A DNA stretch of 64,000 nt from an uncultured Thermoplasmatales archaeon (GTDB lineage Archaea; Thermoplasmatota; Penumbrarchaeia; Penumbrarchaeales; Penumbrarchaeaceae): NCBI GenBank assembly GCA_963807965.1, contig CAWEDU010000017.1:207452-271451 (forward strand). Direction: 5' to 3'. The position numbers were made by a program, and so were the translations under genes. Position 1 is the first letter of the stretch, and the number at the start of each line of letters is the position of its first letter. Below the pieces are notes generated by a model. The model was given only the letters and a program-made list of their open reading frames with translations. It did no database searches and was not told the DNA's origin. Shown in pieces: positions 3,438 through 64,000 of the stretch.

Positions 3438-3554
3438 ACATAACCCCCCAGAATCGATCCCTACGTATTCAAGATACCTGGTCTTTTAAAAGGTTGTTCT
3501 TTTAATCTATATTATCTCAAACCCAGATCGATCCCTCCATTTACTCCTTTTTCA

Positions 3555-17242: not shown

Positions 17243-17307
17243 GATGTAAATGATAGCAGGAGGTATGTATCCTTTCCATGCCTGGAAAGATTTTAAAGAA
17301 GACCGGT

Positions 17308-27271: not shown

Positions 27272-27428
27272 TTCAAATGACCTCTTTTAAGGAACCTCTC
27301 GAATTGGAAGCGGAAAAACCAGATAGCAGCAAGGAAACCCCTATCATTTCTACCTTTTATGCTGAAGTTTAAAATCGGATATATAGATTATGTTTTAGAG
27401 ATCGATGTCATTAAGATACGATCCATCA

Positions 27429-29691: not shown

Positions 29692-29797
29692 ATTCATCCA
29701 GTGAACTTTTAATCAATCATGTGTCCTATGATTAAAAATCAATATATACGTACTTCACCGTTCCATCAAATGGGGAATATGGAATCTCCGAGGAGCG

Positions 29798-30718: not shown

Positions 30719-30721
30719 TCG

Positions 30722-31357
30722 ATGGACCTGCTACTTGTGCTCTACCTTGTTATCGGGATCGCCAGTTTTGTAATACTTCTTGTGATCATGCTTTTGGGAG
30801 GTCTGGACCTGGATCTTGACGGTGGGCCGGACATCGACCTGGACATAGGTGACATGGATATAGATATCGACGCAGGCGGGGGTCCAGGATTGTTCAGTCT
30901 TCCTGTGATGCTTTCCTTCACATCCTCGTTCGGGGGTTTGGGTGCTATTTTGACCTATTTTGGTGTGGACCCGGTCATAACCCCATTCATAGCGGCTTTC
31001 GCATCCCTGGTCTTCGCGGTGCTTCTCTTTCTTATAGTAAGGTATGCTTTCAAGGTCTTCTCATCAGATTCCACGGTGAAATATGGGAGCTTAATAGGAA
31101 AAAAGGCAACTGTCACAGTGCCACTCAATCCCGGAATGGAAGGACAGGTAACACTATTCACCGAACAGAGAGGGAGGACATTGATCCCTGCTGTCGCAGA
31201 TCGAAAATTCGGGAATAATGCAGATGTCATAATAACCAGGAACCTTGGCGACTCAGTGAAGGTCGTATCACCCTCGGATTGGAGGAAGACCAGATCCAGA
31301 TCAAAGAAAGGGGCAGGGAAGCCCCGAAAAAGAGAGGAGAATTTGAATAAGAGGTGA
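30722..31357 (+). CDS. nfeD: NfeD-like membrane protein (short form, OB-fold), the partner of SPFH/flotillin.
   Basis: N-terminal TM helices, then a beta-rich domain (GKKATVTVPLNPGMEGQVTLF...ADVIITRNLGDSVKVV). It is 6 nt upstream of flotillin. Confidence 0.65.
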   Translation: MDLLLVLYLVIGIASFVILLVIMLLGGLDLDLDGGPDIDLDIGDMDIDIDAGGGPGLFSLPVMLSFTSSFGGLGAILTYFGVDPVITPFIAAFASLVFAVLLFLIVRYAFKVFSSDSTVKYGSLIGKKATVTVPLNPGMEGQVTLFTEQRGRTLIPAVADRKFGNNADVIITRNLGDSVKVVSPSDWRKTRSRSKKGAGKPRKREENLNKR

Positions 31358-31363
31358 GAAAGA

Positions 31364-32909
31364 ATGGACATAGTATTGCTATTGATATTTGCGGTCCTGC
31401 TCCTTTTGGGAGTTGGGATAGTGGCGGTGATCATCTATGCTGCGAGGTACAAGAAGGTACCCCCGGACAGTGCGATGGTCGTCTATGGTAGAGGAGCAAA
31501 GAAGGGTGCAAGGGGTTACTCAGTTGTATCCGGAGGAGGCAAGTTCATCCTGCCAGTTGTGCAGGGTTTCGATTTTCTTCCTCTTGATGTCAGGACCCTG
31601 GAGATCTCGGTGACAGATATCGTTACGGATGTCGTGACATCCGGTGCCCAGATGAACATCAAGGCCGTTACCCAGGTCAAGATAGCATCAGATGAGGCAT
31701 CATTGTACACAGCAGCCGAACAGTTGTTGCACAAGACCGACAAAGAGATCAATGAGATCGCCCAGAAAACCCTTGAGGGACATGTCAGGGGGATCTGTGC
31801 GACGATGACCATCGAGGCCATCAACTCGGATAGAGATGCAGTAGCATCCCATGTTCAGTCCCAGGCCGCAAAGGACCTGAGGAACATGGGTATCGAGATC
31901 AGGTCCTTCGTAATTAGAGATATTGAGGACCAGTATGGATACATCAAAGCCCTGGGAAGAAAGAGGACCGCCGAGGTCAAGAGGGATGCAAGGATCGGTG
32001 AGGCCATTGCCAACAAGGAGGCGACAGTAAAGGAAGCAGGGGCGGCAAGGGAGGCCGAGAGGGCCAATTCCGAGGCTGAAGGTCAAGTGGCCATCTTCCA
32101 CAAGGAGAGAGATATCACTAAGCAGAATGCCGAGGCCGAGGTTGAGATCTCCAAGGCAAACAGATCCATCTCCTTCGATCTCCAGGACAAGAAACGGCGC
32201 CAGGAACTTATCAAGGAGCAGATCCAGATCGAGATAGAGGAAAAAGTCAAAAGGATCGAACTCCAGGAAAGGGAGATAGATAGGAAAGGCAAGGAGCAGG
32301 AAGCGATCCAGGTGGTCCCTGCCAAAGCTGCTGCAAATGCCAAGATTGCCGAAGCTGATGGTGAAAAAGGTAGGATCGAGAGAATAGCTGAGGCCGAAAA
32401 GATCAAGACGATAAGAGCAGCAGAGGCTACCCAGTCCCACCTCAAATTGACAGCAGACGGTGAAAGGGAGAAGCTTGAGAAACTGGCTGAAGGTCAAGCT
32501 GCCAAGATCCGTCAGGAAGGAACAGCTGAGGCCGAGGTTATCCAGTTGAAGGGACAGGCCGAAGCCGAAGCCATTAAGGCAAAGGGTCTGGCAGAAGCAG
32601 AGGCAATGGAGAAGAAGGCACTTGCGTGGAGAAAGTGACGGTGATGCTGCAATAACCCAGCTCATAGTCGATCAGCTGCCTAACATTGTGAAGGCAGCAG
32701 CCTCATCACTCGAAGGAGTGGATAAGGTCATAGTCATGGGCGACCAGGGACCTAACGGATTTGTCAGCAAGACCGTGGACATAGCCGCACAGATGCCTGC
32801 ACTGGTGGAATCTCTGACAGGTGTTGACGTGACCAAGCTGATAAGGAATGTCGTCACCACCAAGGAAGAATCCGGGCAGGTGGATGTGGAAGCAAAGGAC
32901 GCGAATTGA
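31364..32909 (+). CDS. floT: Flotillin (SPFH/band-7 family, FloT/YuaG-like), frameshifted near 32628-32640.
   Basis: N-terminal TM, SPFH domain, then a long A/E-rich coiled coil. ORF 32622..32909 encodes the conserved C-terminus (YGDAAITQLIVDQLPNIVKAAASSLEGVDKVIVMG). AAGTGACGG versus AAGTACGG joins AWRK-YGDAA. Confidence 0.75.
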
Positions 32910-38519: not shown

Positions 38520-40677
38520 CTACTCGATCCTTACTCTACAGTCAACTGCAACAGCTCCTTTCTCTGATATGAAAAGCGGATTGATCTCGATATCGGTGAT
38601 CTCATCAACCTGAAGCATCACATCACCCAGAGCCTTCAGTGTTATTGCGATCTTTGACCTATCGGCTTCCTTCTTTCCCCTGAATGCCCCGAGTAGTGCC
38701 TTGCCCCTTATCTCGTCCATCATCTCCCTGGCATCCATCTCAGAGATGGGAGCAACCCTGAACGAGACATCGTTCATGGCCTCTACCATGACCCCACCGA
38801 CACCGAACATCACCGCAGGTCCGAACACCCTGTCCCTGATCGAACTGGCAATGACCTCCCTTCCTGTCAACTGGTCCATGACGATTATCTTCTCTGACAT
38901 GGGTTCCAGCTTCTCATAAGCCTCCACCAGTTCCTCTATGTTGTCAATATCAATGATGACACCACCCCTTTCGGTCTTGTGGATAAGGTCAGGGGAAGAA
39001 CCCTTCAGGACCACCGGGAAACCGATCTTCCTTGCAGCCTTAACGGCTCCGTCAATAGAATCGACCACCGAATATTCACACATCTCAATTGGTCCTGATT
39101 TTAGGAATTCCAGTGATGTTTCCAGGTCCATGAAATTGTGACCTGCCTTTCTTGTCCTGTCTATCAGCTTTTTTATCGCTTTCAGGTCCCATTTCTCCAT
39201 GGGAGGAAGGTCCAGTTCCCTGGTGTTCTTGAACCGCTTGTATCTGTAGAGGACCTCCAGAGATGAGACGGATTCCTCGGGGAAATAGAAGGCAGGTAAC
39301 CCTGCCTCGTTGAAGGCCCTGATCTGGACATCCGCATCCCGACCACCGATGTAGCACAGAACAAGTGGTTTCTTGGGGTCCTTCATGGCCTCTATCAGGT
39401 CTTTTGTGAACTTCTCCACATCGATCCCTGAAACAGCTCCATATATGCCAATGACCGAACCGATGGTTGGTTCGTTCATTGCCTCTTTAAGGCATTGGAT
39501 ATAGTTTTCCGGGGGAGTTTGTGCAGTGATATCCACGGGATTTGAAAGTGATGCAAATGGTGGAAGGAGAGGGCCGAGTTTCTCTGCGATCCATTCAATA
39601 TTATAGAATAAGAGGAAGCCCTGACATTCCCAATTCATCTATTGCGAGTATACCGAAACCACCACCGTTCGTTATCACAAGGCATTCTTCCAGCTCCGGA
39701 AGTGGAAGATCGTTCAAAGCCCTTGTCCAGTCTATTGCTTCTCTAAGTGTGGGGGCTCTTATAGCACCCGCCTGTCTGAATGCAGCATCGAAAAGTGAAT
39801 CCGCTCCTGCAAGGGATGCTGTGTGGGATGCAACTGCCTTGGCCCCTGCTTTGGATCTTCCGGATTTCAGGATGATAACTGGTTTGATCCTAGAGACCTT
39901 CTTGACCTTCTTTATAAACTCCCTTCCATCTTTGAGGCCCTCGATATACATCAGAATGATCTTGGTATTCTCGTCACCACAGAGGAAATCAAGGATCTCC
40001 TCGTCTGAGAGGTCCGCCTTGTTACCCACGGATGTAAGGGCGGAAACACCGATCCCCTCCTGAAAGACCCGGTCCATAAGGGCGATGCCCAGGGATCCTG
40101 ATTGAGTGATAATGGCAACATTCCCCTTAAGGACCATCTCGTTTCCGAACTGGGCATTGAGGTTTACGGGGGTATAGATCATCCCGAAGACATTGGGACC
40201 CAGGATCCTGATGTTCTGTTCCATTGCGGTCCTTTTGATCTCTTCTTCCAGATCGTAGTTTCCTATCTCTTTGAATCCGGATGAGATAATAACAACGAAT
40301 GGAACTCCCTTTTTTCCGCATTCGATGAGTTCCTGATTGACGTACTGTGCCGGGATACATATGAGGGCCAGATCGATCTCCACAGGAACATCTCCAATGT
40401 CCTTGTATCCCTTCTGTCCGCAGACATCTTCCCCCTCACGATTGATAGGGAACATGCCTCCCTCAAACCCTCCATTGACCATATTGTTGAATGTCTTGAA
40501 GCCAATTTTCTTGGGATTATCCGATGCTCCGATGACAGCTACATTGCGGGGTCTGAAGAACCTCTCCAGATCTGGAACCTTACAGGAATCTTCTTCCATG
40601 ACCGGGGAATGGTATGGTATTTTATAAAGAGATTGCAGGGGTACTGACCAAGTAGTGTCTGCTTTTGATCGTGACAT
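38520..40677 (-). CDS. acd: Fused alpha/beta ADP-forming acetyl-CoA synthetase (NDP-forming acyl-CoA synthetase), frameshifted near 39601-39640.
   Basis: ORF 39601..40677 has the CoA-binding and succinyl-CoA-synthetase-like domains (VAVIGAS, GVPFVVIISSGF). ORF 38520..39638 continues with a ligase-CoA region and an ATP-grasp beta domain. The two ORFs overlap by 38 nt in different frames. Confidence 0.75.
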
Positions 40678-40804
40678 TGGCCAGGAAAGGCCGGTATAAG
40701 GAACTTGAAAACAGCATGACTTCTCCCTTAATCGGAGATAGTGAGGAGTGATACATTTTCAAGTGCAAGAAATGTTTCGTTAATATTTATAAACTCAAAT
40801 CATT

Positions 40805-43800
40805 TTGATTGATATGAGTGCGTTGATAACAAAGACGTTTTGCCTTTGGGTGGCGATCTTTCTGGCCTTTCTGGCCGGAATGACCCCCTCAGGTACGGCG
40901 TCAACGGGAGCAGGTCCCTGGACCGAAGAAAAGGTCCTTGAGGAGGGACTTGACCAGGAACCTGCTCCCAGAAACATGTCACGGGGGGACCTTCTTCTTG
41001 CAGAAAGTGAGGAGGTTACCATCCATGGTAATCTGACCTACCGGAGGGCATTGTTGGGGAAGGATTCCATTCTGAACCTTGAAGATTGTAATCTTACCCT
41101 AATAGGGGACGGGAATGAGATACCCTCAATAACCGGTCACCCTTCCACTCTTGCACTCATCAATTCAAGCATAATCCTATCAGGAATGGATGGATCCTCA
41201 AAGATAAGGAGCGCTGGTTCCAATGTCTCATTTGATCTGAATGTCACATCATCCTTCGAAATGCTCAATTCCTCCATCTATCTCAGAGGAGGTGAAGGAT
41301 GGACTAAAAGTGATCCTGGAGCTCCGTTTTCGACTTCGCTTTCAGGTTTCGAATTTTCGGGAGGCAATTCAAGCTTCACTCTCCTTGGTGAAATTTCAAC
41401 CAACATAACAATAGTGGATTCCTCAATAGAGTTGTACGGAGGTTATGGAGGAGATGCTGCCGACGGAGAGGACCTGGATTCCGATGATTTCCATCTGTCC
41501 GGTGGTTATACCACCGGTGCAAATCTATCAGGTAAGGTGGGTTCCGGAGGGGGAGTCTCCATGTCATTCAATGCCCCGGGAGCTGTCATGTACCTCTCGA
41601 ATTCCAGTTTCTGGCTTGAGGGTGGATGGGGAGGGATGGCTGGCAATGCAGGGGGTGTTGTCTGGGATGGGGAAAAGACATACACCCATCCCACGACTTC
41701 AGGAGGATACTCCTCGGGAGGATGGAGCGAAGGAGAACCCTTTGATCCGGGGACTGTTAGCGGTGATGTAGGGTCTGGCGGTCATACTTCACTGGAGATC
41801 CTTGTTGATGATCTAACAATGATGGGATGTCGCCTGTCCCTTGGTTCAGGTGGAGGGGGAAGATCCGGAGAAGGGGGATATTGCATCTCTGATGTGACCG
41901 GAAACCCCGGGACAGCTACCAATACCCTGGGAGGTGGAGGAGGGGGCAGTTATGCAGGAGGATATGGTGGTTATCAGATGATCATTGAGTGGGACGGAGG
42001 GGATGGTGGTAAGATCATGGACCGTGTCGCCAGAGGTGGTGATTCCGAGGTAATGATAAACTGTACCAGATGCATCTGGATGGAGGATAATTTCATTGGA
42101 TGCGCGGGTGGTTCAGTATGGAACCCGAACAGAGGAGGTGCAGGGGGTGGTGATTTGTCATTGGTTATTGATGGAGGTGGTGGAGGAGGATCCGGATATT
42201 CTGGTGGAGGCGGTGCTTCCGCAGAAATGCTTTGTACAATTCAATGAAAGGAGGATCTCCTGGCTGGATCGGCCCTGATGTTGGAGATGCCGGTGATTAC
42301 AAGGTCAAACTTACAGCTCCAATGGTAATGGCCAGGGGGAGAACTGAGAAATATCTCTACGGCGGGATCTCGACCGGTACCTCAGATGTAAACGGGAAGA
42401 GCGGTGAGGTGTCCGCCATGACAGAATATCAGGGGGGAGAAGGAGGAACCGGTTTGGAAAAGGGAAAAAGGGATGGAAGTGGAACATACAGAGGTCCTCT
42501 ACCCGCACCATTTCCGATCTATCCGTTGGATGGTGAGATCATCACGGATCTTTCCGAACCATTCGAATGGTGCCCCCTGGATACAGGCTATTATCCTGCT
42601 TCAGGAAATGAGTTCACCTTCAGATTGACAGGATCTTTGAATATCAATGATGTTATCCAGGAGTTCAATGTAACATCGCTTTCAACTTCCCTGATGGATG
42701 AGATCGAGGATGGTCACTATTACTGGACTATCAAACCCCACAAGGGAAATGCAGTAACCACCTGGATGAAACCCCAGCTTTTCACAGTCGACCGTACAGC
42801 TCCGGTAGTTCTTTCAGGTCCGGTATTTCCATGGGTTCCCTCCTCGGATCCGGTTTGTAATGTGAGATACATCGAGAACTTGACAGGTCTGGATCCGGAT
42901 TCGGTAATGGTAAGGTACGGTCCCCTTGAGGGGCCATTCGGGGAATGGTTCTCAGCAAATACCATTGAAGAAGGAAATGGAATTCATTCCGTTGAGGTGG
43001 TCCTCCCCTCAGAAGAGAGCAATTATACCTTCTATGTCAAAGCTTCGGACTGGGCAGGAAACGGTCCTATCCTTGCAGGTCCTTATTTCATCGGAGTTGA
43101 CGGATCACCTCCTTTGATAGAGGACCTTACACCTTCTGGCTGGACCAATACTTCATTCCATCTCTCTTTCAGATCCTCGGACCGTTTATCAGGTCTTTCC
43201 CGTAACTTCACATTGAATATTCAAGGTCCTTTTGGAAGCACCATCAAAGATATCCTTCCAGAGGAATATGAGGGGGGCCTTTTCAGAACCATTGGGTCTT
43301 TTCAACTTGAAGAAGGTAACTATACCTTCGAGCTTGTCACAAAAGATGCTGTCGATAACCTCGGAACATCCGGACCGCTTTCGGTCCTTGTTGATGGGAG
43401 CTGTCCGATATTGATGGCTTACACTCCAGCTGATGGGGCTATATTCAACGATCCCTTACCGGCACCCTTGATCAAGGTTGTGGATAGATTGAGCGGTCCT
43501 CTGATGATGGAGTATCATCTGGAAGGGCCTTCAGGAATATTCGATCTGAGGTACTTCGATCTGCTTGATACCGTTGACGTGAACATAGGCCAGCCTCTTT
43601 CCGAGGGGAATTACACCTGGTATGCGAATGCATCTGACCAGGTTGGGAACAGAATGTCCGCAGGTCCTTTCCATTTCATGGTGGATATGACACCGCCGAT
43701 CGTCGAGGTTTTAGGAATCGAAGAAGAAAACACCATTATGATCCACAGTAATGATATTCTCACCGGATTGGAAGAGGCCGAGGTCAGATGCGAGATACCG

Positions 43801-45279
43801 GGAAAGAACGGATGGATAGAGGTCTGGAAGGAGACCATGGACCTCATTCCGGGACCTCCACAAAGTGACTATTCATTGAATATTGAACATACCATTCCTG
43901 GACCAGTCTGCTACCTGTCAGTCAAAGGTACGGACCAAGCGCAGAATATTGGTGATTGGTCCTCCCGGACCAGGATAAACGGACCCGGTTCTGAACTGAA
44001 CATTTATATTGAGATCCCAAGTGTGGTCGGAGCAAATCCGCTGTTAGAGGTCAAGATGGACCTGCCTCTGGGGGTGGACATCTCATCAGTTTCCATGAAG
44101 CTCGAACCCGGCCTTGGTACCATAGCGGTCCTTAAACCAAGATCATTGGAGGTCCTGACCAATTCAACTCCGATCCAGGGATCCGATCTCCTGGTCCCAT
44201 CGAGGGTCAAAGCAGCATTTCAGGTCCCGTTCGATGAAGGTGTATTCGAGGCCTGGATAACATTCAGGGATGGATTGCCACTTCCGGTCGAGAGGATATG
44301 GGGTCCTCATTCCCTTACAGTTGACGGGGAATCACCTCTCATCGATCTGGAGGCAGACCCCTTCTATACAGAGGTCCCCGCAAGGGTGACCTTCGATGCA
44401 AGCGATAAGACATCCGATATATCCATGATGGAGATCTCTGTTGGCGGGGGGGAATTCGGACCTTTCGATCTGCCAGGAGCTCCGTCACTGCATCTAAATG
44501 AAGCTGGGAGTTCATGGATCATGGTGAATTTCTCGTACGGACCCGAAACCGAAATAATTGTAAGGGTCCTCGATGAAGCAGGAAATATGGCAGAAGGATC
44601 GGTGACCACCAGGGCAACGAGACCTCCTTTCGTGAGCATCGAGAGGTCATATACAGGAACAGTAGTTTCCGGAGAGGAATTTCAGCTCACTGCGGACTGC
44701 CAGGACCCTGAGGGTGATATCCTTTCATTTTCATGGTATGTGGATGATGTCCCTGCAGGTACAGGAGAGGTCCTCTCCCTGGTCCTTGAGAACGGGACCC
44801 ACCGGATCGTCCTGAACTGTTCAGATGGAGACCTTTTCGTCCAGAAAGAGATGATGATCATTGCAGAAGGACCTGCAATTGAATTGGAGGAGAAACAGGG
44901 TTCACAGGAGAAGGGTCCTGCTTTTCTCCTAGTTGCAGGTATGATCGTTTCCATTCTTGTCATGGCTATGATCTCAGTGATCCTGGTCCTCTGGAGGAGA
45001 GGGGATAGATCTGATGGCGATGAAGAGGATGAGGAAGTTTGGGGTGATGGGGACTCGGTCAAGACAGGGAGGACCGGTGAAGGTCTTCAAGATGACATCA
45101 GTAAATCGAACGGGGAAGATATCGGTATCCACTGTGATATCTGCCTGAGAAGGTTATCAGGAAGCTCCAGGACCGTGAAATGTAGATGCGGAGCACAATT
45201 CCACAGAGCCTGCGCTTCCAGGGAAGGGGAATGTCCCGAATGCGGAAGGGAGATAATGCTCCCATCCGATGGCATATAG
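40805..45279 (+). CDS. Giant (~1490 aa) single-pass surface protein: signal peptide, beta-helix-like NxS/T-rich region, Gly-rich region, multiple Ig-like (DxAGN) domains, a PKD-like domain, a TM helix, and a cytoplasmic C4HC3 zinc-finger-like tail. One frameshift lies near 42235-42247.
   Basis: Signal peptide MSALITKTFCLWVAIFLAFLAGMTP. GG(Y/S)GG-rich region from 41400 to 42450. The second ORF starts at TTG with an open upstream frame, so it is treated as a continuation. Repeated TxP..DxxGN modules. The TM segment AFLLVAGMIVSILVMAMISVILVLW is followed by RRGDR. The tail reads HCDICLRRLSGSSRTVKCRCGAQFHRACASREGECPECG. Confidence 0.7.
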
Positions 45280-48927: not shown

Positions 48928-49944
48928 ATGCCACAGAACGACCAGGAGTTCATGCAGATCCTGAATATAATCCGGAGAGGTCAGAAGCTTGTCCTCCAAG
49001 CAAAGAAGGAGGGAGCCGAGATCCAAATGGCAGAGGAACTCATCAACGAGGCAAAATACGCCTTGAAGATCGACAAGAGGGAGGAGGCCGTTGACTATGC
49101 CAAGAAGTGCATAGTCGAGGTCATCAGGGCAAAGAGGGAGATGGATACCGAGAATTTGACCCATGAGGGTGCCCTTGAGAAGCTCACAAAGGAGGAGCTC
49201 AGGCAGAAGTGCAAGGAGCTCGGCCTGGAATCCCTTGGACTCAAGTCTGATCTGGTGGAAAGGATCAAGGAACGGCTTGTGGAGATGAAAGGAACTCCAC
49301 CACCGATCAATGAAGAGAAGGTTCTGGAGGAGGTCTTGCCCCCTGAACCGGAACCAGAGGTACCTAAAAAGACCGTTCAGGATAAGGCCGCCCCAACCCC
49401 TCCTGCCAACGGTGAGGTAACCGATGGTGTGGAAGCTCTCACCAAGAATGCTTGGAATCCAAAAAAGGCGGCAAAGGAGCTGACACCGGGTCTCTCATAT
49501 CTGATAGAGGAGAAAAGACCAGAACGGCTCTTTCACATTTACAAGGCCCTGAAGGAGATGGGAATGGAGGGAATAATTATCTCCAGGACCAACTCGAAGA
49601 TCCTTGCGAGGACATATGGTGTCAACGAGAAAGAGACAGTATGGCTGACCGGCAAGGAGATCGAAGGTGAGATCCGATCTGTCCTTCCGATCCTGGAATT
49701 CATCATGTCCATTTACGAGGAGTTCATGGAAACCACCGGTAACGGGGTCATTCTCCTTGATGGTCTCGAATATCTGCTCACAAACAACAAGTTCAATTCC
49801 GTTCTTAGGTTTATCAGGCAGCTTGTGGACAATATCTCACAGACAGAATGCATCCTCATGGTTGCACTTTCACCGGACGCACTGGATTCCACAGAAGTGA
49901 CGCTTCTTGAGAAGGACCTTCTCCCGATGAACTACATCGAGTAG
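48928..49944 (+). CDS. SAP-domain protein with a C-terminal DUF835-like domain.
   Basis: SAP motif LTKEELRQKCKELGLESLGLKSDLVERIKERL. An acidic/Pro linker follows, then a region that fits DUF835 from memory (tentative). Confidence 0.5.
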   Translation: MPQNDQEFMQILNIIRRGQKLVLQAKKEGAEIQMAEELINEAKYALKIDKREEAVDYAKKCIVEVIRAKREMDTENLTHEGALEKLTKEELRQKCKELGLESLGLKSDLVERIKERLVEMKGTPPPINEEKVLEEVLPPEPEPEVPKKTVQDKAAPTPPANGEVTDGVEALTKNAWNPKKAAKELTPGLSYLIEEKRPERLFHIYKALKEMGMEGIIISRTNSKILARTYGVNEKETVWLTGKEIEGEIRSVLPILEFIMSIYEEFMETTGNGVILLDGLEYLLTNNKFNSVLRFIRQLVDNISQTECILMVALSPDALDSTEVTLLEKDLLPMNYIE

Positions 49945-50690
49945 TATCCTACATTCTGAAGGAAAGCCTTCTCAAAGGACCCATATATCTCTTTGATATT
50001 CACTGTATTATCAGTTATCATTACTTTGCCTTTGTTGATGATGGCTACTCTGCCACAGAGCTCCTCAGCGAGTGACAGGATATGGGTGGATAGAAGGATA
50101 GTACCTCCATTTCGGGCATATTCCAGAAGATGGTCCTTCACCTTTCGTTGATATATGGGGTCCAGATTGATGAATGGTTCATCAAGAAGTAGTAGCGGAG
50201 GCTTATGGATGAATGCAGATGACAGCATCAGCTTCTGCCTGGTTCCCTTTGACATATTCTTCGCAATGGTCTGTCTATAGGATCCCAGATCGAAGAAGTC
50301 CACCCATTCTCTCTTTTCGTCCTCATCCTTTTCCCTTCTTCTGGTATCCATGACGAAATCAAGGAACTCATCAAGTTTGAGGAAAGATGGGGGTGTTTCA
50401 GATTCGGGAACATATCCCGTGAAAGATTTTATCCTCAAACTTTCGGTGGAAGGGTCCATTCCAAGGATGCCGATCCTTCCCCGATCCGGTCTTTCAGTTC
50501 CGATCAGGGATCTCATCAATGTAGATTTTCCGGCACCATTGGGGCCTATCAATCCGAAGATCTCTCCTCTTTCAACCTGAATGTTCACATCGTCCAGTGC
50601 CTTCAATTGGCCGAAGGACTTGGATATACCTTTTACAGAAACGGCAGGGCCGTCCCTTTCGGGAGGATCCCATCTGCCTCCGTTGACCAA
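49932..50690 (-). CDS. ABC transporter ATP-binding protein with no adjacent permease gene. Its start abuts the stop of the C11 peptidase gene.
   Basis: Walker A GPNGAGKST, ABC signature LSKGTRQKL, Walker B LLLLDEP, H-loop STH. Confidence 0.8.
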   Translation of the reverse strand: MVNGGRWDPPERDGPAVSVKGISKSFGQLKALDDVNIQVERGEIFGLIGPNGAGKSTLMRSLIGTERPDRGRIGILGMDPSTESLRIKSFTGYVPESETPPSFLKLDEFLDFVMDTRRREKDEDEKREWVDFFDLGSYRQTIAKNMSKGTRQKLMLSSAFIHKPPLLLLDEPFINLDPIYQRKVKDHLLEYARNGGTILLSTHILSLAEELCGRVAIINKGKVMITDNTVNIKEIYGSFEKAFLQNVGYYSM

Positions 50691-52490
50691 TTATTCATTC
50701 CTCCCCCGGAATATTACAACTCCCAGGATAAAGGCAGCGGCAATGATCAGGATCAAGAACGCACTGATGAACCATTGAGGTATCTTGAAGTCCTCTGCAT
50801 CGCTCCTTTCTCCCCCCTGGATGGTTATCTCAGTATGAACAATGCTTGTGGACTTACCCACATTCCCGCCAGTATCTGATACAGGTCTATCGAAAGCTCT
50901 TACCTCAATGCGGTGGGTCCCCAGTCCCAGTAATTCGGAATTCATCTGGTGGAGGAAAGGTATCTTTCCCTGTCCGGATATACCTGGCATGGTGGTCCAT
51001 TCTCCGTTGTCAACTCTTACCTCGACACGGTCGACCATCTCCCTATCGTAGGCGACACCCCTCAGGATTATTGTACCTTCATCAAGAGGGAAGGTCGTAT
51101 TGAACTGAGGGCTGGTTATTGTTACCGTGGGATCTGAATCTTCTATTGGGTCTATTCCATAGTAGGAATGGAGGAATTCATCCCACAGATGCTCCCTTGC
51201 ATAGGATGTCTCCTCGTAGGAGAGGAGATAATTGGTCGGGAGTTGAGTAATGGAAAGGGAATCCTCATCCTTGTTTGGAAAATACATGGAAAGTCCATTT
51301 GCCTCCGGATGCCATTGATCCGCTTCGGATGCAAACATGAATCCCTCTCCCGGAATGTCACTGGTGATGGTTTCCCTCACTTTTGCAGTGAGTTCCTGGA
51401 TCATATTGTTCTTGGGGAAAGCATCTGCAATGTACTGGTCAAGGTATTCTGTGAAATCAATGATATCATAGAGGGGATAGCCAGTCAGATCATAGACGAA
51501 AACATTTGCCATATCGTATGAGTTGCAGTTCTTCCTGGCCTGATATATCTGAAGAAGGTATTCCAATCCCCCGAGGGGGCCCTTAGAACCGAGTTCTTCC
51601 GAGAACTCGTCCAGTACTGCTACGACCTCGTCCATGAGTTCGAGATCGAACGCTGCCTGGGTGACCATTGGGTAATCCTGCGGGTCCTGCTGCTTGTTGT
51701 TATAGGAGTAGATGTATTCATGGACTATTATTGCTGCAAATTCCTTCTCATCCATTCCGGGCTTCTCCGTCAATGGTCCCAGGACCTCATCATAGGGCCA
51801 ACCGTCACCGGGCTCATTGTAACCTGAGCCAACACCGACTTTAACGAAATCCTTGAGCTCATACATGACAGCTACCTGTGCCATAAGACAGGCATCGAAT
51901 CCCCAAAGGTCCATCTTACGATTTCCCAGGACCTTGTAGATCTCTTCAGCAGCATAGTTCACATCCGACATGTTCAGGGCATCATACTCTCCTTCGGGTA
52001 GATCAGGGACAGTATCATCAAAGCATACACCTCTGAAAGCTCCACCATGGTTCCATAATATCAAGGCATATTTCTGTGCGGGATAGTTCTTGACGGACCA
52101 GGAAACAAAATCGATCAACGTTTCAGGGTCGCCCATATTCACTTCACCGAGCCTTCCCTGTTCAGGAGAAGTGATGGTGTCCCTGTCGAGGTCCTTTTCT
52201 ATGTAGAATCTTCGGCAATCATCCCAGTCCCCATTCGTGGAATCATAATCCCTTATCCGGTCCATCTGGACAACAATGTTCACATCATCCGTGGAACCGA
52301 ACTCCTCCATTTCGTTCATATCATCGATCCCTGCAGCCTCCAGATTGTTGTCGGCATCCAGGTAGACCATGAAAGTCCATTTGGGGAGCTCATCCTGCCC
52401 TTGGGTTGGTTCCAGGAAGGGAACCATGGATAGAAAGAAAAGTGAAACGGCGAATATCGAGATAAGCGAAGTTGCCTTCAATGGGTGCAT
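50691..52490 (-). CDS. Clostripain-family (C11) cysteine peptidase with a signal peptide, an Ig-like domain and a C-terminal TM anchor.
   Basis: FMVYLDADNNLE, His region ILWNHGGAFRG, catalytic Cys region WGFDACLMAQ. Signal peptide MHPLKATSLISIFAVSLFFLSMV. C-terminal TM segment WFISAFLILIIAAAFILGVVIF. Confidence 0.8.
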   Translation of the reverse strand: MHPLKATSLISIFAVSLFFLSMVPFLEPTQGQDELPKWTFMVYLDADNNLEAAGIDDMNEMEEFGSTDDVNIVVQMDRIRDYDSTNGDWDDCRRFYIEKDLDRDTITSPEQGRLGEVNMGDPETLIDFVSWSVKNYPAQKYALILWNHGGAFRGVCFDDTVPDLPEGEYDALNMSDVNYAAEEIYKVLGNRKMDLWGFDACLMAQVAVMYELKDFVKVGVGSGYNEPGDGWPYDEVLGPLTEKPGMDEKEFAAIIVHEYIYSYNNKQQDPQDYPMVTQAAFDLELMDEVVAVLDEFSEELGSKGPLGGLEYLLQIYQARKNCNSYDMANVFVYDLTGYPLYDIIDFTEYLDQYIADAFPKNNMIQELTAKVRETITSDIPGEGFMFASEADQWHPEANGLSMYFPNKDEDSLSITQLPTNYLLSYEETSYAREHLWDEFLHSYYGIDPIEDSDPTVTITSPQFNTTFPLDEGTIILRGVAYDREMVDRVEVRVDNGEWTTMPGISGQGKIPFLHQMNSELLGLGTHRIEVRAFDRPVSDTGGNVGKSTSIVHTEITIQGGERSDAEDFKIPQWFISAFLILIIAAAFILGVVIFRGRNE

Positions 52491-52665
52491 CCTCCTTTTA
52501 TTGATTACAACTCCGGTAATGATATAATCTTTATGGTCATGGGTATGAACAGTTACTCCTGAATATCAAAGAAATCCGAACATTAGATATACGTGTGTAC
52601 GATGAAGGTAAAAAAGAACAGGAGGGAGTCCCCTGGAAGAAGCAATCTGCCATATCGAGATAAGC

Positions 52666-52815
52666 ATGGAGGACGATGAGATCGTTGCAAAGCTCCAGAG
52701 TGACCTTGGAGGGATCAGGGAGTTCAGGTCATTGACCTATGAGCAGGTCCTGAAATTGGTGGTCAATGAGCTTCAGGAAGAGCTGGAGTTCAATACAGAA
52801 CATGAGGTCGAGTGA
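52666..52815 (+). CDS. Possible small acidic protein (49 aa) in the 16S leader region.
   Basis: ATG-to-TGA ORF reading MEDDEIVAKLQSDLGGIREFRSLTYEQVLKLVVNELQEELEFNTEHEVE. It is below the track's size cutoff and has no further support. Confidence 0.2.
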   Translation: MEDDEIVAKLQSDLGGIREFRSLTYEQVLKLVVNELQEELEFNTEHEVE

Positions 52816-52852
52816 GCATATCTGGACAGTCCTCTGTTCCATTCGGAAATGT

Positions 52853-52947
52853 TTTTATATCAAATCAATATTAGCAGGTTTCCCCCAGGGGGTCATTGAC
52901 CCATCTGTGGGGAACTTGACCTCACTTATAATAAGGGTTATATATTC
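52853..52947 (+). promoter_or_regulatory. Candidate archaeal TATA-box promoters for the 16S rRNA gene.
   Basis: GAAATGTTTTTATAT (52847-52861), then CTTATAATAAGGGTTATATATT (52925-52947), about 225-320 nt upstream of the mature 16S 5' end. The stem-loop CCCCCAGGGGG sits between them. Confidence 0.35.
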
Positions 52948-53112
52948 GACCTTGTTTAAGGGGGTCTTACCCGCAGCCATTTGCGTTGTTCCGTGAGACG
53001 GTGTATTGCCTCAGATGATCGGAACCATCCAGGCCCGCGGACATATGAAAGGGGTTGGAGAAACCCGGAGAAATCCGTGACCTCTCCTATCCGACATACG
53101 ATGAAAGTGATA

Positions 53113-53131
53113 CTTGAGCGAATCGAACGTT
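53113..53131 (+). other. 5' half of the 16S processing stem (pre-rRNA excision helix, BHB-type). It pairs with 54683..54700.
   Basis: CTTGAGCGAATCGAACGTT is nearly perfectly complementary to AACGTTCGGTCGCTCAAG at 54683-54700, bracketing the 16S. Confidence 0.55.
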
Positions 53132-53169
53132 GTGTGCAGGAAGATGGAAAGTATATTTCTCATCTGCCA

Positions 53170-54647
<1,478 letters not shown>

Positions 54648-56249: not shown

Positions 56250-56735
56250 ATGGGTATGAAGATCGGAAAGGCATTGAGCGAGAAGAAAGCCGCTCAAAAC
56301 GCATTATCCCGCCTCATGACCCTCCGAGAGAAGACCATGTTCCATGAGGAAGATAAGGAACCCGAATTGGTCTTTTCTGAACTCGAGGACCTGATCGACC
56401 AGAAGATAAGGATGATAAAGGATCTGAAACTCAGGATCATCTACACCAACTGCAATCACCGGTTGGAGAATGAGATGATGCTTCAGGAGGCGATTATCAA
56501 CATAGGTGACCTCAGATCCGAACTTAAAGCATACAACTCTCTTCTGGACAAGGAACCAGGTGGAAGATCATATTTTGGTTCATCCAGGGATACTGATAAG
56601 GAATATCTCTCTCAGATCTCAAAAAGGGAGATCATGGATAAGATCGAGAAACTGGAAAGTGAAAAGAACGAGCTGGATTCACTGATAGCCAGAGCGAATA
56701 ACACCGTTGATATCGTGGATGAGGTTCCGGGATAA
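56250..56735 (+). CDS. Hypothetical coiled-coil protein.
   Basis: 161-aa ORF, charged/helical composition. Confidence 0.35.
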   Translation: MGMKIGKALSEKKAAQNALSRLMTLREKTMFHEEDKEPELVFSELEDLIDQKIRMIKDLKLRIIYTNCNHRLENEMMLQEAIINIGDLRSELKAYNSLLDKEPGGRSYFGSSRDTDKEYLSQISKREIMDKIEKLESEKNELDSLIARANNTVDIVDEVPG

Positions 56736-57134: not shown

Positions 57135-57704
57135 ATGCATCTGTATGAAAATATGATACAACTGTATCAAAATATCAATACACTTAAGGTCCTCAGCCAT
57201 TTCTTCAAGGATCCATACACTGGATATTATCTCCGGGAGCTTGCCAGGCTGCTAGATATGGATCCAATGACAGTTAAGAGAGCACTCGATTTACTGGTAA
57301 ATGATGGTTACCTTGAAAAATATGAAGAAAAGAATCTGCTCCTTTACAGAGCGGATATGAATAATCCCCATTTCACTTTCGCCAAGGTCTCCTACAGTTT
57401 ATCGATAATATATGATCAGAAAGTGGTAGAACATATAATGGAGAAAGTGTCCGGTTTGATCTGCATTGTTTTATATGGAAGTGTATCAAAGGGAGAGGAT
57501 GGTACGGAAAGCGATCTGGACCTTCTCATTATTGGTGGATCATTGGGTGACACCTTGGATTCATTTGATCTACCTTGGGAATTCAATCTTGTTTTCATGA
57601 CACTTGATGAATGGGATGATACATACCATAAAAACAGGGGTTATTACGATGAGATAATCAGGACAGGGATTAATCTCCATGGAATTTTGCCGGTGATCGA
57701 TTGA
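57135..57704 (+). CDS. Minimal nucleotidyltransferase (MNT) with an N-terminal wHTH; antitoxin-type partner of a HEPN protein.
   Basis: NTase motif LYGSVSKGEDGTESDLDLLIIG. 4-nt ATGA overlap with the downstream HEPN gene. Confidence 0.65.
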   Translation: MHLYENMIQLYQNINTLKVLSHFFKDPYTGYYLRELARLLDMDPMTVKRALDLLVNDGYLEKYEEKNLLLYRADMNNPHFTFAKVSYSLSIIYDQKVVEHIMEKVSGLICIVLYGSVSKGEDGTESDLDLLIIGGSLGDTLDSFDLPWEFNLVFMTLDEWDDTYHKNRGYYDEIIRTGINLHGILPVID

Positions 57705-58141
57705 GACTTGATGAATGTTACAAGAAGAGATTCCTTAGGAGAATTAAACCGGATATGAATAAATCGGAAAAATCTCTAAAAATGGCGGAGGAGAAATTGT
57801 TAAAAGCAATTGAACTGAAATCTTCCGGATTCAATGAGGAATGTCTGGTGGCGTCCTATTCTGCCATGCTTATGGCTGCAAGGGGTCTATTATTTTCCGA
57901 TGGTGTGATGGAGAAAAATCATTATTGTGTTATTTTATACTTGAAAGAGAATTATCTGAATGAGATCGGTCAGGGTCCGATATCCTGGCTTGATGTTTAT
58001 CGTAGTGAACGGCATCAATGGTTCTATGGATTAGATAGCCTTTCCACTTCGGAGAAAGGATCAAAAAATGCCGTTGATCGTGCAACCAGGTTTATTGATA
58101 TCGTCAAGGTGCTGCTGAAAGGTGACGAATCTGAAGAATAA
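57701..58141 (+). CDS. HEPN-domain protein (toxin-type partner of the MNT).
   Basis: 146-aa helical protein with an R-x(3-4)-H-like motif (YRSERHQ), coupled to the MNT gene. Confidence 0.55.
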   Translation: MRLDECYKKRFLRRIKPDMNKSEKSLKMAEEKLLKAIELKSSGFNEECLVASYSAMLMAARGLLFSDGVMEKNHYCVILYLKENYLNEIGQGPISWLDVYRSERHQWFYGLDSLSTSEKGSKNAVDRATRFIDIVKVLLKGDESEE

Positions 58142-60918: not shown

Positions 60919-61272
60919 TTGTTCGAACCCGATGATAAGTGGATAGAGACCTTTTATTTTGACAAATGGTATAATATCTTCAGGATCGCCTCGGGAAAGG
61001 GTGAACTCAAGGGTTTCTACATAAATATTACCAAACCTCCGATCATCGGATCTGATACCATCGATTGGGAGGACCTTGCAATCGATATTTGGGTGAGGCC
61101 GGATGGGTCCTATTTGGTACTGGACGAGGATGAGTTTGAGGACCTTGTTATAGATCAAAATATTCGTATTGGAGCCCTGGAAGCATTGGAAACCGTTAAG
61201 GAAATTGTAAGAAAGAAGGACATAAGCGTGTTTGATTTCCCTTGGTATTCCCAACTTTTAAAATATGATTGA
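60919..61272 (+). CDS. Small DUF402-like protein (tentative).
   Basis: 117-aa ORF. The upstream frame is open, so the start is uncertain. Confidence 0.3.
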   Translation: MFEPDDKWIETFYFDKWYNIFRIASGKGELKGFYINITKPPIIGSDTIDWEDLAIDIWVRPDGSYLVLDEDEFEDLVIDQNIRIGALEALETVKEIVRKKDISVFDFPWYSQLLKYD

Positions 61273-61287
61273 TACCATATTTTTTTC

Positions 61288-62871
61288 ATGGTTTGGAAGG
61301 GATTCTTCAATCTGCATGTGATTATATTTTTCATTCTGATGGTCTTCCCCCTGATTCCTCTCCTTGAGAATAGGTCGGATGGAGATTCAACTAAGGGGAT
61401 CGTAGATGATCATCTGGATATTCAAAAAAATGATTGGATTATCGATTCGAAAGATTTCGAATCGAACCTGGGAGGGATGAATCAATCCCAAAATGATTTT
61501 AGAGGGATAGATAAAAATGCTGATGAAGGAAGAGTAGATACTAAATCAAACATCAAGGAAACCGTTCCTCTGAATGCATACGAAGGACCGAAGTATTCAA
61601 ATAAAGATCATAACAAAATTGAATTGGATACTGGAGATCTTAGATCCGGGTCCGATTGGACATTGATGGTCTATCTTGATGGGAATCACAATCTTTGCAC
61701 TCACGGTTCAAGCGACATGGCTGAGATAAACGCATCCTTTGCCACGAATGTGGATGTCCTTGTCCTGAAGGATGACGATAGCGAAGATGGAAATGACACA
61801 AGGATGTACTACGTGAACGGAGGGATCTCGGCAGAGATACATCCCAATTGGCTCGATGATGAGGAGAACATGGGGGATGGAGATAATCTCTATGACTTCG
61901 TCAATTGGACCCTCTCGAACTATCCCTCCGACAGGACAATGTTGCTTTTTTGGGACCATGGTTCAGCTTACTGGGGATGCTGCCGTGACGAGGATACTGG
62001 ACCGGATTTCATTGAAGATGAAGATTCCCTGAGGATAATGGAAATCAGGGATGCTCTTGACAGAGCCATTTCTCCCGGTGATAAGCTCGATATCATGGCA
62101 TTTTGCGCTTGCAGCATGGCCAATACCGAGGTTTGCTACTGCATGGCAGATTATGCAGATTATCTGCTCGCATCCGAACAGTCCGGCTGGCTCACAGAGT
62201 CGGAAGGATTCAATTGGGATTTCACATTGATAATAAATGAGATGAATTCGAACGACGATCCCGTTGATCTGTGTGAGTATATTGTCGATACGACGATGGT
62301 GAACTCGGAAAATGTCCAAGCCCACAGATCTCATACCTGGAGTGTTATCGATCTGAGTGAAATGGAGGACCTCAAGGATAGACTCGACTGGTTCTCATAT
62401 GAATTGATGGAAGCATTCCCTGAATATTATTATGAGATATCCCAAGCAAGGTTGGCAACAGAGGAGTATAAAAGCGGAGTTCGGCCTGATTTGTACCACT
62501 TCGCCCAGAATATTAAGAATCATGGAAATCTACCTTCTGACCTGAAGAATGCGGCAAGCACATTGACGAGCGGGGTAAATAATGCTGTAATTTATGAGGA
62601 CCATAGAACAGGAGATGATGTTGTCACATCCGGTTTGTACGACCCAGCGATCACTAGCAGATCAGATAAAATCGCAACGGAGGACAAGGACAAGACTCAT
62701 GGACCCGTTGACAACGCCCATGGTTTGACGGTTTACTTTCCTGTAAACCATTCCGGAGAGAGTCTTTGGTATTACAGAAGTTCCACCCATGATAAAGTAC
62801 TTTACAGATCGATCCGTTTGGGACGAATGGCTCGAGATCTATACGGATTTCATATATGTAGACGACAGTAA
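61288..62871 (+). CDS. Second clostripain-family (C11) cysteine peptidase. It very likely continues by a +1 frameshift near 62795 into the beta-helix domain annotated next.
   Basis: LMVYLDGNHNL, LLFWDHGSAYWG, MAFCACSMANTE. Signal peptide-like VIIFFILMVFPLIPLL. Confidence 0.75.
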   Translation: MVWKGFFNLHVIIFFILMVFPLIPLLENRSDGDSTKGIVDDHLDIQKNDWIIDSKDFESNLGGMNQSQNDFRGIDKNADEGRVDTKSNIKETVPLNAYEGPKYSNKDHNKIELDTGDLRSGSDWTLMVYLDGNHNLCTHGSSDMAEINASFATNVDVLVLKDDDSEDGNDTRMYYVNGGISAEIHPNWLDDEENMGDGDNLYDFVNWTLSNYPSDRTMLLFWDHGSAYWGCCRDEDTGPDFIEDEDSLRIMEIRDALDRAISPGDKLDIMAFCACSMANTEVCYCMADYADYLLASEQSGWLTESEGFNWDFTLIINEMNSNDDPVDLCEYIVDTTMVNSENVQAHRSHTWSVIDLSEMEDLKDRLDWFSYELMEAFPEYYYEISQARLATEEYKSGVRPDLYHFAQNIKNHGNLPSDLKNAASTLTSGVNNAVIYEDHRTGDDVVTSGLYDPAITSRSDKIATEDKDKTHGPVDNAHGLTVYFPVNHSGESLWYYRSSTHDKVLYRSIRLGRMARDLYGFHICRRQ

Positions 62872-64000
62872 TTCTGGTTTCCAGGGAGGATGCATAAAAT
62901 ATCCCTATCAGACCATCGGACAAGCTCTTGATGTGGCAGATGATGGTAATACGATAAGAATTTTCTCGGGTACCTATGCCGAGAACTGCATTGTTCCTTT
63001 AAAGATCAACCTGACCGGTAACGGAACATCATTGTCACCGGAATCCCATATTGTTCCTTCTTCTGGAATCCCGGTCAATATTACATCTGGCAATGTTGGC
63101 CTTTCTCTACTAGATATTCACACCAGCTCGTCAAATCCAGAGAGCAATATAGTAGTTGATGGCCGATATGTCACGATCAGGAACTGCACCGTGGGTGAGA
63201 CAGGTGGTTACGGAATACATTTTTTAAACACATATTCATGCATTATCGACAATTGCACCATTTTCGATTCGGTAGATGCAGGGATCTTTCTTGACAATAC
63301 CTATTTGACAACTGTCTCCTTCTGTGAAATTTTCGACAACAACGACGGTCTTTCAATGGATTCTTCCATTTATGAGACAATAACAGATTGTAAAATTCAT
63401 GACAACTCGGATTACGGTATCAATATCAGGGATTCTGATCATATTGTGATAAATGATTGTGATATCTATGACTGCATCGATTACGGTCTATATGCCGACA
63501 CCAAATCGAACGACATCGATGGCAGATTCAATTACTGGGGTGATATCACTGGACCGGGAGGATGGGGGCCAGGAAATGGGGCCGAAATATTCCATACTGT
63601 AGAATATTCACCTTGGCTGGGAAACTGGGTCGGTACAGAACCCAACCAGGAGTATTTCGTGGATTACTCAGGTTCAATCCAGGCTGCTGTGGATCACTCG
63701 ACTCCGGATGATATCATATATGTATATTATTCGGTTTACAAGGAACAAGTGGTAATTGATAAAACCCTTTCATTGTATGGGTTGGTGGAAATCCCCCCCT
63801 ATCCAATAATCTATTCAAACCAGGGTGTTGATGCTGTCCAGATCCTTGCCCAGGATGTAATAATACAGAATTTCAACATCACAACATCGGGTCTTTCCGG
63901 GAACGGTATCCTTGTGGGAATGGGCGACATAGAGGCGGATGGAACTTCTATCAAACAATGCAATGTAACAAATGTCGGAGACAATGGAATCCATGTTGAT
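62789..64000 (+). CDS. Right-handed parallel beta-helix (NosD/pectin-lyase-like) domain, 3' partial. It is probably the C-terminal extension of the C11 peptidase.
   Basis: My own translation of the +1 frame is open from 62750 to the window end. DGSxxxPYQTIGQALDVADDGNTIRIFSGTY is the classic beta-helix N-cap, followed by PbH1-type repeats (NCTI, DNSDYGINIRDSDHIVINDCDI). The first 20 aa (TDRSVWDEWLEIYTDFIYVDD) are homologous to the paralogous C11 peptidase (AREHLWDEFLHSYYGIDP). Confidence 0.6.
   Translation, partial: MIKYFTDRSVWDEWLEIYTDFIYVDDSNSGFQGGCIKYPYQTIGQALDVADDGNTIRIFSGTYAENCIVPLKINLTGNGTSLSPESHIVPSSGIPVNITSGNVGLSLLDIHTSSSNPESNIVVDGRYVTIRNCTVGETGGYGIHFLNTYSCIIDNCTIFDSVDAGIFLDNTYLTTVSFCEIFDNNDGLSMDSSIYETITDCKIHDNSDYGINIRDSDHIVINDCDIYDCIDYGLYADTKSNDIDGRFNYWGDITGPGGWGPGNGAEIFHTVEYSPWLGNWVGTEPNQEYFVDYSGSIQAAVDHSTPDDIIYVYYSVYKEQVVIDKTLSLYGLVEIPPYPIIYSNQGVDAVQILAQDVIIQNFNITTSGLSGNGILVGMGDIEADGTSIKQCNVTNVGDNGIHVD

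Follow-up and report, generated by a model that had tools for sequence, protein, structure and literature searches.

A split gene in an uncultured Thermoplasmatales archaeon appears to encode a C11 peptidase/beta-helix fusion, probably held at the cell surface

Results

Layout of the C11-2 locus

We analyzed a 64,000-nucleotide (nt) stretch of contig CAWEDU010000017.1 from an uncultured Thermoplasmatales archaeon, referred to here as the window. Two of its genes match the clostripain-like C11 peptidase family: a peptidase open reading frame (ORF) at position 61288, which we named C11-2, and its paralog at 50691..52490, which we named C11-1. The C11-2 ORF spans 61288..62871 on the + strand and encodes 527 amino acids (aa); its stop codon lies at 62869-62871, in agreement with an earlier sequence-only reading of the window that had this ORF stopping at 62871. 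The next frame (frame 2) opens at 62747, stays open as far as the window end, and has its sole ATG at 62789. The region is made up as follows.

61288..62790, + strand: in-frame part of C11-2, codons 1-501 (Pfam Peptidase_C11 match begins at 61669; tblastn)
62791..62797, + strand: frameshift zone, frame 1 to frame 2 (tblastn junction 62790/62792; DNA alignment with the orthologous locus L001)
62798..62842, + strand: last conserved C11 element, in frame 2, YFTDRSVWDEWLEIY, with WDEW invariant in four proteins
62798..62871, + strand: out-of-frame tail of the 527-aa ORF, 24 aa, VLYRSIRLGRMARDLYGFHICRRQ, from 62797, with the stop at 62869-62871
60919..61272, + strand: DUF402 gene, the immediate upstream neighbor of C11-2 and likewise present in L001

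In Pfam searches, the 527-aa ORF matched Peptidase_C11 with 132.9 bits (cut-off 25.8) over positions 1-307 of the 359-position profile only, and frame 2 matched Beta_helix (69.4 bits), NosD (58 bits), and DUF1565. Once the two frames were merged, the Peptidase_C11 match grew to profile positions 1-357 of 359 and Beta_helix was matched as well; a Pfam run of this kind on the merged translation had been proposed in the sequence-only reading. That reading had also claimed that the +1 frame from about 62750 encodes a C11-1-like segment and continues into a beta-helix N-cap and PbH1 repeats. The former is upheld by alignment, in which the merged C11-2 translation is colinear with C11-1 across the junction, YFTDRSVWDEWLEIY facing YAREHLWDEFLHSY; the latter agrees with the Beta_helix, NosD, and DUF1565 matches. 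The out-of-frame tail at 62798..62871 has no match in L001, and the frame 1 tblastn alignment ends at 62790. A 527-aa database protein, P0001, corresponds to the whole ORF (61288..62868) and is identical over codons 1-501.

One gene in the orthologs

A scan of species-representative genomes returned a single orthologous locus, L001, from a metagenome-assembled genome (MAG) of an uncultured Thermoplasmatales archaeon. There, a single ORF of 1682 aa spans the counterpart of the C11-2 region without interruption. Its upstream neighbors, an opposite-strand PKD protein and a DUF402 gene, match those of the window, and we regard the locus as orthologous because it has the same DUF402 neighbor. By tblastn, L001 residues 1-494 align to 61288-62790 in frame 1 with 69% identity, and residues 495-897 continue at 62792-64000 in frame 2 with 68% identity. 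C11 and Beta_helix/NosD domains are likewise joined in single database proteins, namely P0002 (1377 aa, complete within its own contig), P0003 (1317 aa), P0149 (1692 aa), and P0151 (1731 aa), and the same domain pair occurs in P0160 (763 aa). A search of related genomes for the fusion, as the sequence-only reading had proposed, thus found it in L001, P0002, P0003, P0149, and P0151, and these single ORFs of 1317-1731 aa bear out its claim that the real product is probably a protease/beta-helix fusion.

The junction itself is conserved in an alignment of four proteins (FP.N....F..(D/S)..WDEW.....(F/Y)I(F/Y)VDDS..(G/K)F..G..KYP), where it ranks among the best conserved stretches. On these alignments, the two frames of the window are to be read as one ancestral gene for a C11 protease/beta-helix fusion. 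A homolog search with the beta-helix part gave two weak matches only and missed P0002 and P0003 too; the missing 100% match for the downstream frame is uninformative because the same search overlooked those two proteins.

A metagenome scan yielded 29 C11 loci, one of which, L009, was an apparent beta-helix fusion. We rejected it as such: the protein consists of C11, immunoglobulin (Ig)-like, and dockerin parts, and the beta-helix protein is the separate next gene. L009 (positions 113-5070, on a metagenome contig with higher guanine-plus-cytosine content) encodes a C11 protein with Ig repeats and a dockerin-like domain, followed by a beta-helix protein with a signal peptide. Both share a dockerin-like C-terminus, and the pair is an unfused counterpart of the fusion in the window.

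The protease head

The protease head contains the following features.

61303..61365, + strand: N-terminal hydrophobic segment FFNLHVIIFFILMVFPLIPLL (signal peptide or signal anchor, by eye), its position kept in L001, P0002, and P0003
61669 to about 62842, + strand: C11 domain (Pfam, merged frames)
61957..61959, + strand: codon of catalytic His224 (WDHG), aligned to the HG motif of 6n9j and 6mzo
62104..62112, + strand: codons Cys273-Ala274-Cys275, with Cys275 catalytic (AC motif alignment with 6n9j and 6mzo)

Between the N-terminal segment and the C11 domain lies an acidic linker of ~100 aa that is poorly conserved in the four-protein alignment. His224, which also aligns to the corresponding residue of 3uws/4yec, and Cys275 are invariant in that alignment. 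C11 peptidases carry an S1-pocket Asp two residues before the catalytic Cys (Asp177 in PmC11, Asp229 in clostripain) that is reported to be conserved family-wide (PMC4850288). This Asp is missing in C11-2, which has Cys273 instead; C11-1 keeps the canonical FDAC. The equivalent residue is Cys in L001, Thr in P0002, Ser in P0003, Ala in P0149 and P0160, and Gly in P0151. The change would bear on specificity and not on the catalytic machinery, and the C11-2 clade may have a P1 preference other than Arg/Lys, which clostripain and PmC11 favor, because the usual S1 Asp is replaced across the clade.

Over the clade as a whole, the S1 position (62104-62106 and its homologs) is occupied by Cys, Thr, Ser, Ala, Gly, or Met. 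In P0152 and P0153, an Asp stands one residue ahead of the catalytic Cys.

Beta-helix modules and probable surface location

Downstream of the C11 domain, frame 2 encodes the following.

62849..63517, + strand: first beta-helix module, with the N-cap FIYVDDSNSGFQGG..YPYQTIGQALDVA..G.Y and then PbH1-type coils (Pfam, AlphaFold2, Foldseek)
63518..63622, + strand: inter-module motif DGRFNYWGDITGPGGWGPGNG......YSPWLG, recurring after each module in the orthologs
63650..64000, + strand: start of the second beta-helix module, which runs off the window (tblastn, alignment, model)

Within the inter-module motif, RFNYWG, GPGG, GPG, and YSPWL are invariant in the alignment, and the motif has a low predicted local distance difference test score (pLDDT) in the model. 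By orthology, ~400-800 more residues would follow beyond the window end; L001 has four beta-helix modules, in which Pfam marks six Beta_helix stretches. The AlphaFold2 model has a mean pLDDT of 78.8 and consists of stacked short strands, with most of the helix core at 85-97. Foldseek found beta-helix enzymes with a best E value of 3e-7, at template-modeling scores of 0.2-0.45 and 10-15% identity; the search gave generic beta-helix neighbors only and no functional assignment. Carbohydrate binding by the beta-helix, which had been part of the sequence-only reading, is possible on the modeled fold, a generic one.

The C-termini of L001 and P0003 consist of a hydrophobic segment followed by basic residues, and those of P0149 and P0151 look similar by eye. 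The earlier description of the product as a secreted enzyme stands in part: an extracytoplasmic location fits, and free secretion is the less likely form of it, since two orthologs (L001 and P0003) end in a hydrophobic membrane segment that favors anchoring. From these C-termini, the C11-2 product is more likely to be anchored at the cell surface than freely secreted. Two results tell against anchoring: P0002 ends without a hydrophobic segment, and no PGF-CTERM match (NCBIfam, E <= 1) was obtained on the C-termini of P0151, P0149, P0003, L001, or C11-1. A PGF tripeptide is present in P0151, seen by eye only.

Broken genes and the 16S rRNA gene

At least seven further frame-breaking indels occur in the 64 kb, in genes that give colinear matches to a single Pfam profile or are intact in relatives. 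The affected genes are listed here.

18113-19512, − strand: phytoene-desaturase-like Amino_oxidase gene, split at a G5/C4 run near 19010 into parts that match profile 26-173 and 176-442
25947-27286, − strand: PHO4 phosphate transporter gene, split at ~26440 (profile 1-201 and 200-349)
38523-40758, − strand: ADP-forming acetyl-CoA synthetase gene, split at ~39620; one 685-aa gene in the related locus L003
40793-48773, + strand: two giant Ig-like surface-protein genes in at least five open frames; intact in the related locus L002

L002 is a related MAG contig whose C11-1 is 95% identical to that of the window and whose DNA is ~87% identical overall. Its counterparts of the two giant surface-protein genes are intact (1487 aa and 1156 aa), and relative to it, the window has 1 extra nt at each of 47068, 47867, and 47984 and a net gain of 2 nt near 42230-42391. 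Four of the best-placed indel sites (47068, 47867, 47984, and ~19010) adjoin CCAAG/CTTGG, two of them at CCCCCAAG. With just 134 such motifs in the 64 kb, the association looks more systematic than random, and a recurrent error of basecalling or polishing, possibly related to base modification, may lie behind it.

The window also carries an unusual ribosomal RNA gene.

53170..54647, + strand: full-length archaeal 16S rRNA gene

This 16S is 81-83% identical to the 16S genes of L002, L004, and L006, which are 94-95% identical among themselves, and the DNA flanking it is ~88-96% identical to L002. A Logan assembly made independently and representing essentially the same strain (L038; run ERR11523668) matches the window with 99.8% identity over 50103-53170, yet within the 16S, 58 of the first 340 positions differ; over the first ~300 positions, the L038 16S equals that of L002. 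The Rfam score of the window 16S is 1334 versus about 1515 bits. Random sequencing noise was considered as the cause and rejected, as the universal 16S motifs are preserved and compensatory changes are seen in 28 pairs. The likeliest account is that the window 16S is a foreign or mis-polished consensus, in which case a 16S-based taxonomy of the contig would be wrong. Upstream of the gene, the 16S leader (52500-53000) is 96% identical to L002 and more conserved than coding DNA.

Interpretation of the frameshift

In the DNA alignment, the window has one surplus base relative to L001 (catgATAAAg versus catg-tcgag), and frame 2 is open over 418 codons in all. An open frame 2 with an identity equal to that of the upstream part means that any real inactivation would be very recent. 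We consider the extra base at 62791-62797 to be probably a consensus error of an indel-prone metagenome assembly, because other genes of the window are broken and the 16S disagrees with its independent assembly; from the sequence context, an artifact is the most likely status of the break. Two points weigh against this assignment. The site differs from several other indels in having neither a long homopolymer nor an adjoining CCAAG motif, and our search found no independent assembly of the same strain that covers the junction. If the base were instead real, a recent frameshift would have inactivated or split the C11/beta-helix gene in this strain, leaving a secreted C11 peptidase cut short within its last conserved segment, together with a beta-helix remnant that is cytoplasmic or not translated at all. 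The break does stand in the deposited assembly, where P0001 was called with 527 aa on a contig of 353 kb, the site is no obvious error hotspot, and inactivation is common in surface-protein genes, large examples of which hold most of the other indels in the window. However, the housekeeping-type PHO4, acetyl-CoA synthetase, and phytoene desaturase genes carry the same kind of single break and the 16S is demonstrably not that of the same strain's independent assembly, both of which point to poor consensus quality, and more than 400 codons of frame 2 have remained open at 68% identity to L001 versus 69% upstream. We regard a real mutation as rather unlikely.

Two other arrangements were considered. 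In the first, the 527-aa ORF would be a complete C11 peptidase gene, and ATG 62789 would start an independent second gene, for a beta-helix protein. That ATG exists, and C11 and beta-helix proteins are separate neighbors at the unrelated locus L009. But the last conserved C11 segment is missing from the 527-aa ORF and lies in frame 2, the product from ATG 62789 would start inside the C11 domain with neither a hydrophobic N-terminus nor a signal sequence, and the orthologs are single ORFs, all of which makes this arrangement highly improbable. Programmed +1 ribosomal frameshifting near 62791-62797 would restore the full protein by joining the two frames in translation, and this is the sole point in its support. 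All five long homologs (L001, P0002, P0003, P0149, and P0151) are in-frame, 62785-62800 holds no slippery or stall motif, no in-frame stop occurs at the site, and frame 1 continues for 26 more codons past it; we give recoding next to no weight.

A single surface C11/beta-helix gene split by one extra base that is likely an artifact is thus the explanation that we favor, with good though not full confidence. The DNA from 61288 to the window end and beyond forms a single gene, whose product would be a large extracytoplasmic protein of ~1300-1700 aa, probably anchored in the membrane. Its predicted order of parts is a hydrophobic signal or anchor, an acidic linker, and a clan-CD C11 peptidase with the His224/Cys275 dyad, continuing without a break into successive right-handed beta-helix modules that each finish with RFNYWG..GPGG.GPG....YSPWLG, and ending, to judge from two orthologs (L001 and P0003), in a C-terminal hydrophobic membrane segment. 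The one extra base at 62791-62797 would throw the frame such that gene callers report a 527-aa C11 peptidase with a nonsense tail and an orphan beta-helix frame. The beta-helix modules may serve as a rigid stalk or a binding surface that presents the predicted protease outside the cell, with a putative role in extracellular protein degradation and scavenging or in the processing of surface proteins. For annotation, the "truncated C11 peptidase" and the orphan beta-helix frame are to be merged as one surface-protein gene. More broadly, a contig with many single-base indels and an odd 16S calls for caution over pseudogene counts, 16S taxonomy, and protein lengths.

The paralog C11-1 and its ABC ATPase neighbor

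The second C11 peptidase lies next to an ATP-binding cassette (ABC) ATPase gene.

50691..52490, − strand: C11-1, 599 aa, C11 peptidase plus a Big_7 Ig-like domain, canonical FDAC (Pfam)
49932..50690, − strand: ABC-2/DrrA-like ABC ATPase, 252 aa, immediately downstream of C11-1 (ABC_tran, Pfam)
48928..49944, + strand: SAP and DUF835 gene, convergent, downstream of the ATPase and in the same conserved block

C11-1 matches Peptidase_C11 with 163.3 bits over profile positions 1-358 and has hydrophobic segments at residues 8-26 and 570-594. The Big_7 match and the second of these segments agree with the sequence-only reading, which had given C11-1 an Ig-like domain and a transmembrane anchor. Its family consists of ~560-630-aa proteins with C11, often Big_7, and terminal hydrophobic segments (2138 matches at E <= 1e-10), and many of the sources are named Thermoplasmatota or Thermoplasmata. 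By inspection, the ATPase has intact Walker A, Walker B, and H-loop motifs and MSKGT at the signature position. No multi-transmembrane permease candidate lies near it in the window, where multi-transmembrane ORFs are of other families or far away, and none lies within 5-10 kb of the ATPase in L002-L006.

The adjacency recurs in five related loci, which come from four other sources and whose identities range from 45 to 100%. The order C11-1 to ABC ATPase is found in L002 (C11-1 95% identical), L003 (61%), L004/L005 (49%), L006 (45%), and the same-strain L038 (100%), with gaps between the two genes of -4 to +62 nt. It forms part of a block that is kept wholly or partly in L002-L006 and L038 (window positions 48928-54647): 16S, divergent C11-1, ABC ATPase, convergent SAP and DUF835 gene, and giant surface proteins. 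The latter are ~1130-1156 aa and 1430-1490 aa, and the block is kept down to 45% C11-1 identity. The adjacency of C11-1 and the ATPase is real and conserved in the clade, which confirms the proposal that C11-1 abuts a permease-less ABC ATPase.

Whether adjacency reflects a shared function is a separate matter. C11-1 and the ATPase might form a functional unit for ATP-driven export, activation, or regulation of the protease, in which the membrane partner would be an unlinked permease or C11-1's own two hydrophobic segments. The recurrent gene order with its short gaps, the lack of a permease within 5-10 kb, and the intact nucleotide-binding motifs are consistent with such a unit. On the other side, the whole block is syntenic and the pairing may be inherited gene order, the pairing is missing in C11-1 relatives at 40% and 33% identity, no ABC_tran occurs in the C11 homologs listed (precomputed Pfam, plus nine of 150 scanned), and the cytoplasmic tails of C11-1, at ~6 residues, are too short for a coupling helix. 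We see the functional unit as a tentative possibility, more doubtful than not. The gene pair is conserved and can be tested experimentally.

Stop-codon read-through from C11-1 into the ATPase, two genes that share a reading frame both in the window and in L002, was considered and rejected; in L003 and L006, the two genes are in different frames, and no fused homolog was found.

Comparison with known systems

C11-2 shares with PmC11 of Parabacteroides merdae and with clostripain (MEROPS family C11, clan CD) a PF03415 match well above threshold, and the His133/Cys179 dyad of PmC11 has its counterpart in His224/Cys275, aligned with solved C11 structures. The helical C-terminal subdomain of PmC11 and clostripain is present in C11-2 once the frames are merged, whereas their S1 Asp is absent (Cys273). 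By profile and dyad, C11-2 is a member of family C11 that departs from it at the S1 Asp. Known C11 enzymes are ~370-530 aa long and lack a beta-helix array, unlike C11-2. C11 fused to Ig-like, PKD, CARDB, and dockerin domains is common among the closest homologs, and on domain content, the beta-helix fusion is a rare architecture within these known extracellular C11 fusions. A full-text literature search combining clostripain, beta-helix, and archaea returned no paper describing the fusion.

Predicted extracytoplasmic C11 peptidases are reported to be common in Thermoprofundales (MBG-D) and other Thermoplasmatota (PMC6461988, PMC9585477). These clostripain-type peptidases are archaeal like C11-2, and the protein-feeding role proposed for them fits (PMC6461988, PMC9585477). 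The reports list the genes by annotation and describe neither a multi-module beta-helix fusion nor an absence of the S1 Asp. An archaeal C11 enzyme described as experimentally studied is globupain, which comes from an Archaeoglobales MAG (PMC10104074). C11-2 adds a rare C11 architecture, with an altered S1 position and beta-helix modules, to the extracellular C11 peptidases presumed to support protein feeding by sedimentary and aquatic Thermoplasmatota.

The C-terminal part of C11-2 has profile matches and a modeled fold in common with right-handed parallel beta-helix proteins (PF13229, PbH1). Its Foldseek neighbors include the AlgE4 epimerase, alginate and pectate lyases, phage tailspikes, and the PfbA adhesin, with a likeness at the fold level only; no catalytic or sugar-binding residues were singled out, and no comparison of active sites was made. 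In contrast to known beta-helix proteins, the C11-2-type helix lies behind a protease and comes in up to four repeated modules. A NosD assignment does not hold: TIGR04247 gave 158.4 bits on L001 against a cut-off of 300 (NCBIfam), and the neighbors scanned contain no nos genes (nosZ/F/Y) but PKD, DUF402, and cation-efflux genes. The window ATPase shares ABC_tran and its motifs with ABC-2/DrrA-type ATPases, the closest NCBIfam families being of DrrA, GldA, and NodI type. It differs from them in scoring below every NCBIfam family cut-off and in being paired with a C11 peptidase and not a permease; it does not make up a complete ABC transporter, as no cognate permease lies alongside. A bolder view would make the C11-2 clade an undescribed class of archaeal surface protease, in which the lost S1 Asp would bring about a new P1 specificity and up to four beta-helix modules would form a stalk under the catalytic head. 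Independently, the C11-1/ABC pair may be a new kind of ATP-coupled module for control or export of an extracellular protease, with a loose analogy to FtsEX-type mechanotransmission. We think these views improbable.

Other genes in the window

Several other genes drew our attention. At 57135-58141 (+ strand), a helix-turn-helix nucleotidyltransferase gene (Polbeta/NTP_transf_2) is followed by a HEPN-domain gene, and the two resemble an MNT-HEPN toxin-antitoxin pair. Neither this pair nor the DUF6847 gene at 56250-56735 is among the genes called in the matching stretch of L002. A carotenoid cluster at 16646-19512 (− strand) comprises Caroten_synth (PF04240), a phytoene/squalene synthase, and the frameshifted phytoene desaturase. 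The Ig-like surface protein fragment at 42232-45279 (+ strand) has a C-terminal transmembrane segment followed by a cytoplasmic tail resembling the Prok-RING_1 zinc finger, an unusual combination. Finally, three contiguous open frames at 29732-32638 (+ strand), encoding a TPR protein, a protein without assignment, and a Band_7/SPFH protein, lie in the same frame and are split by single stops.

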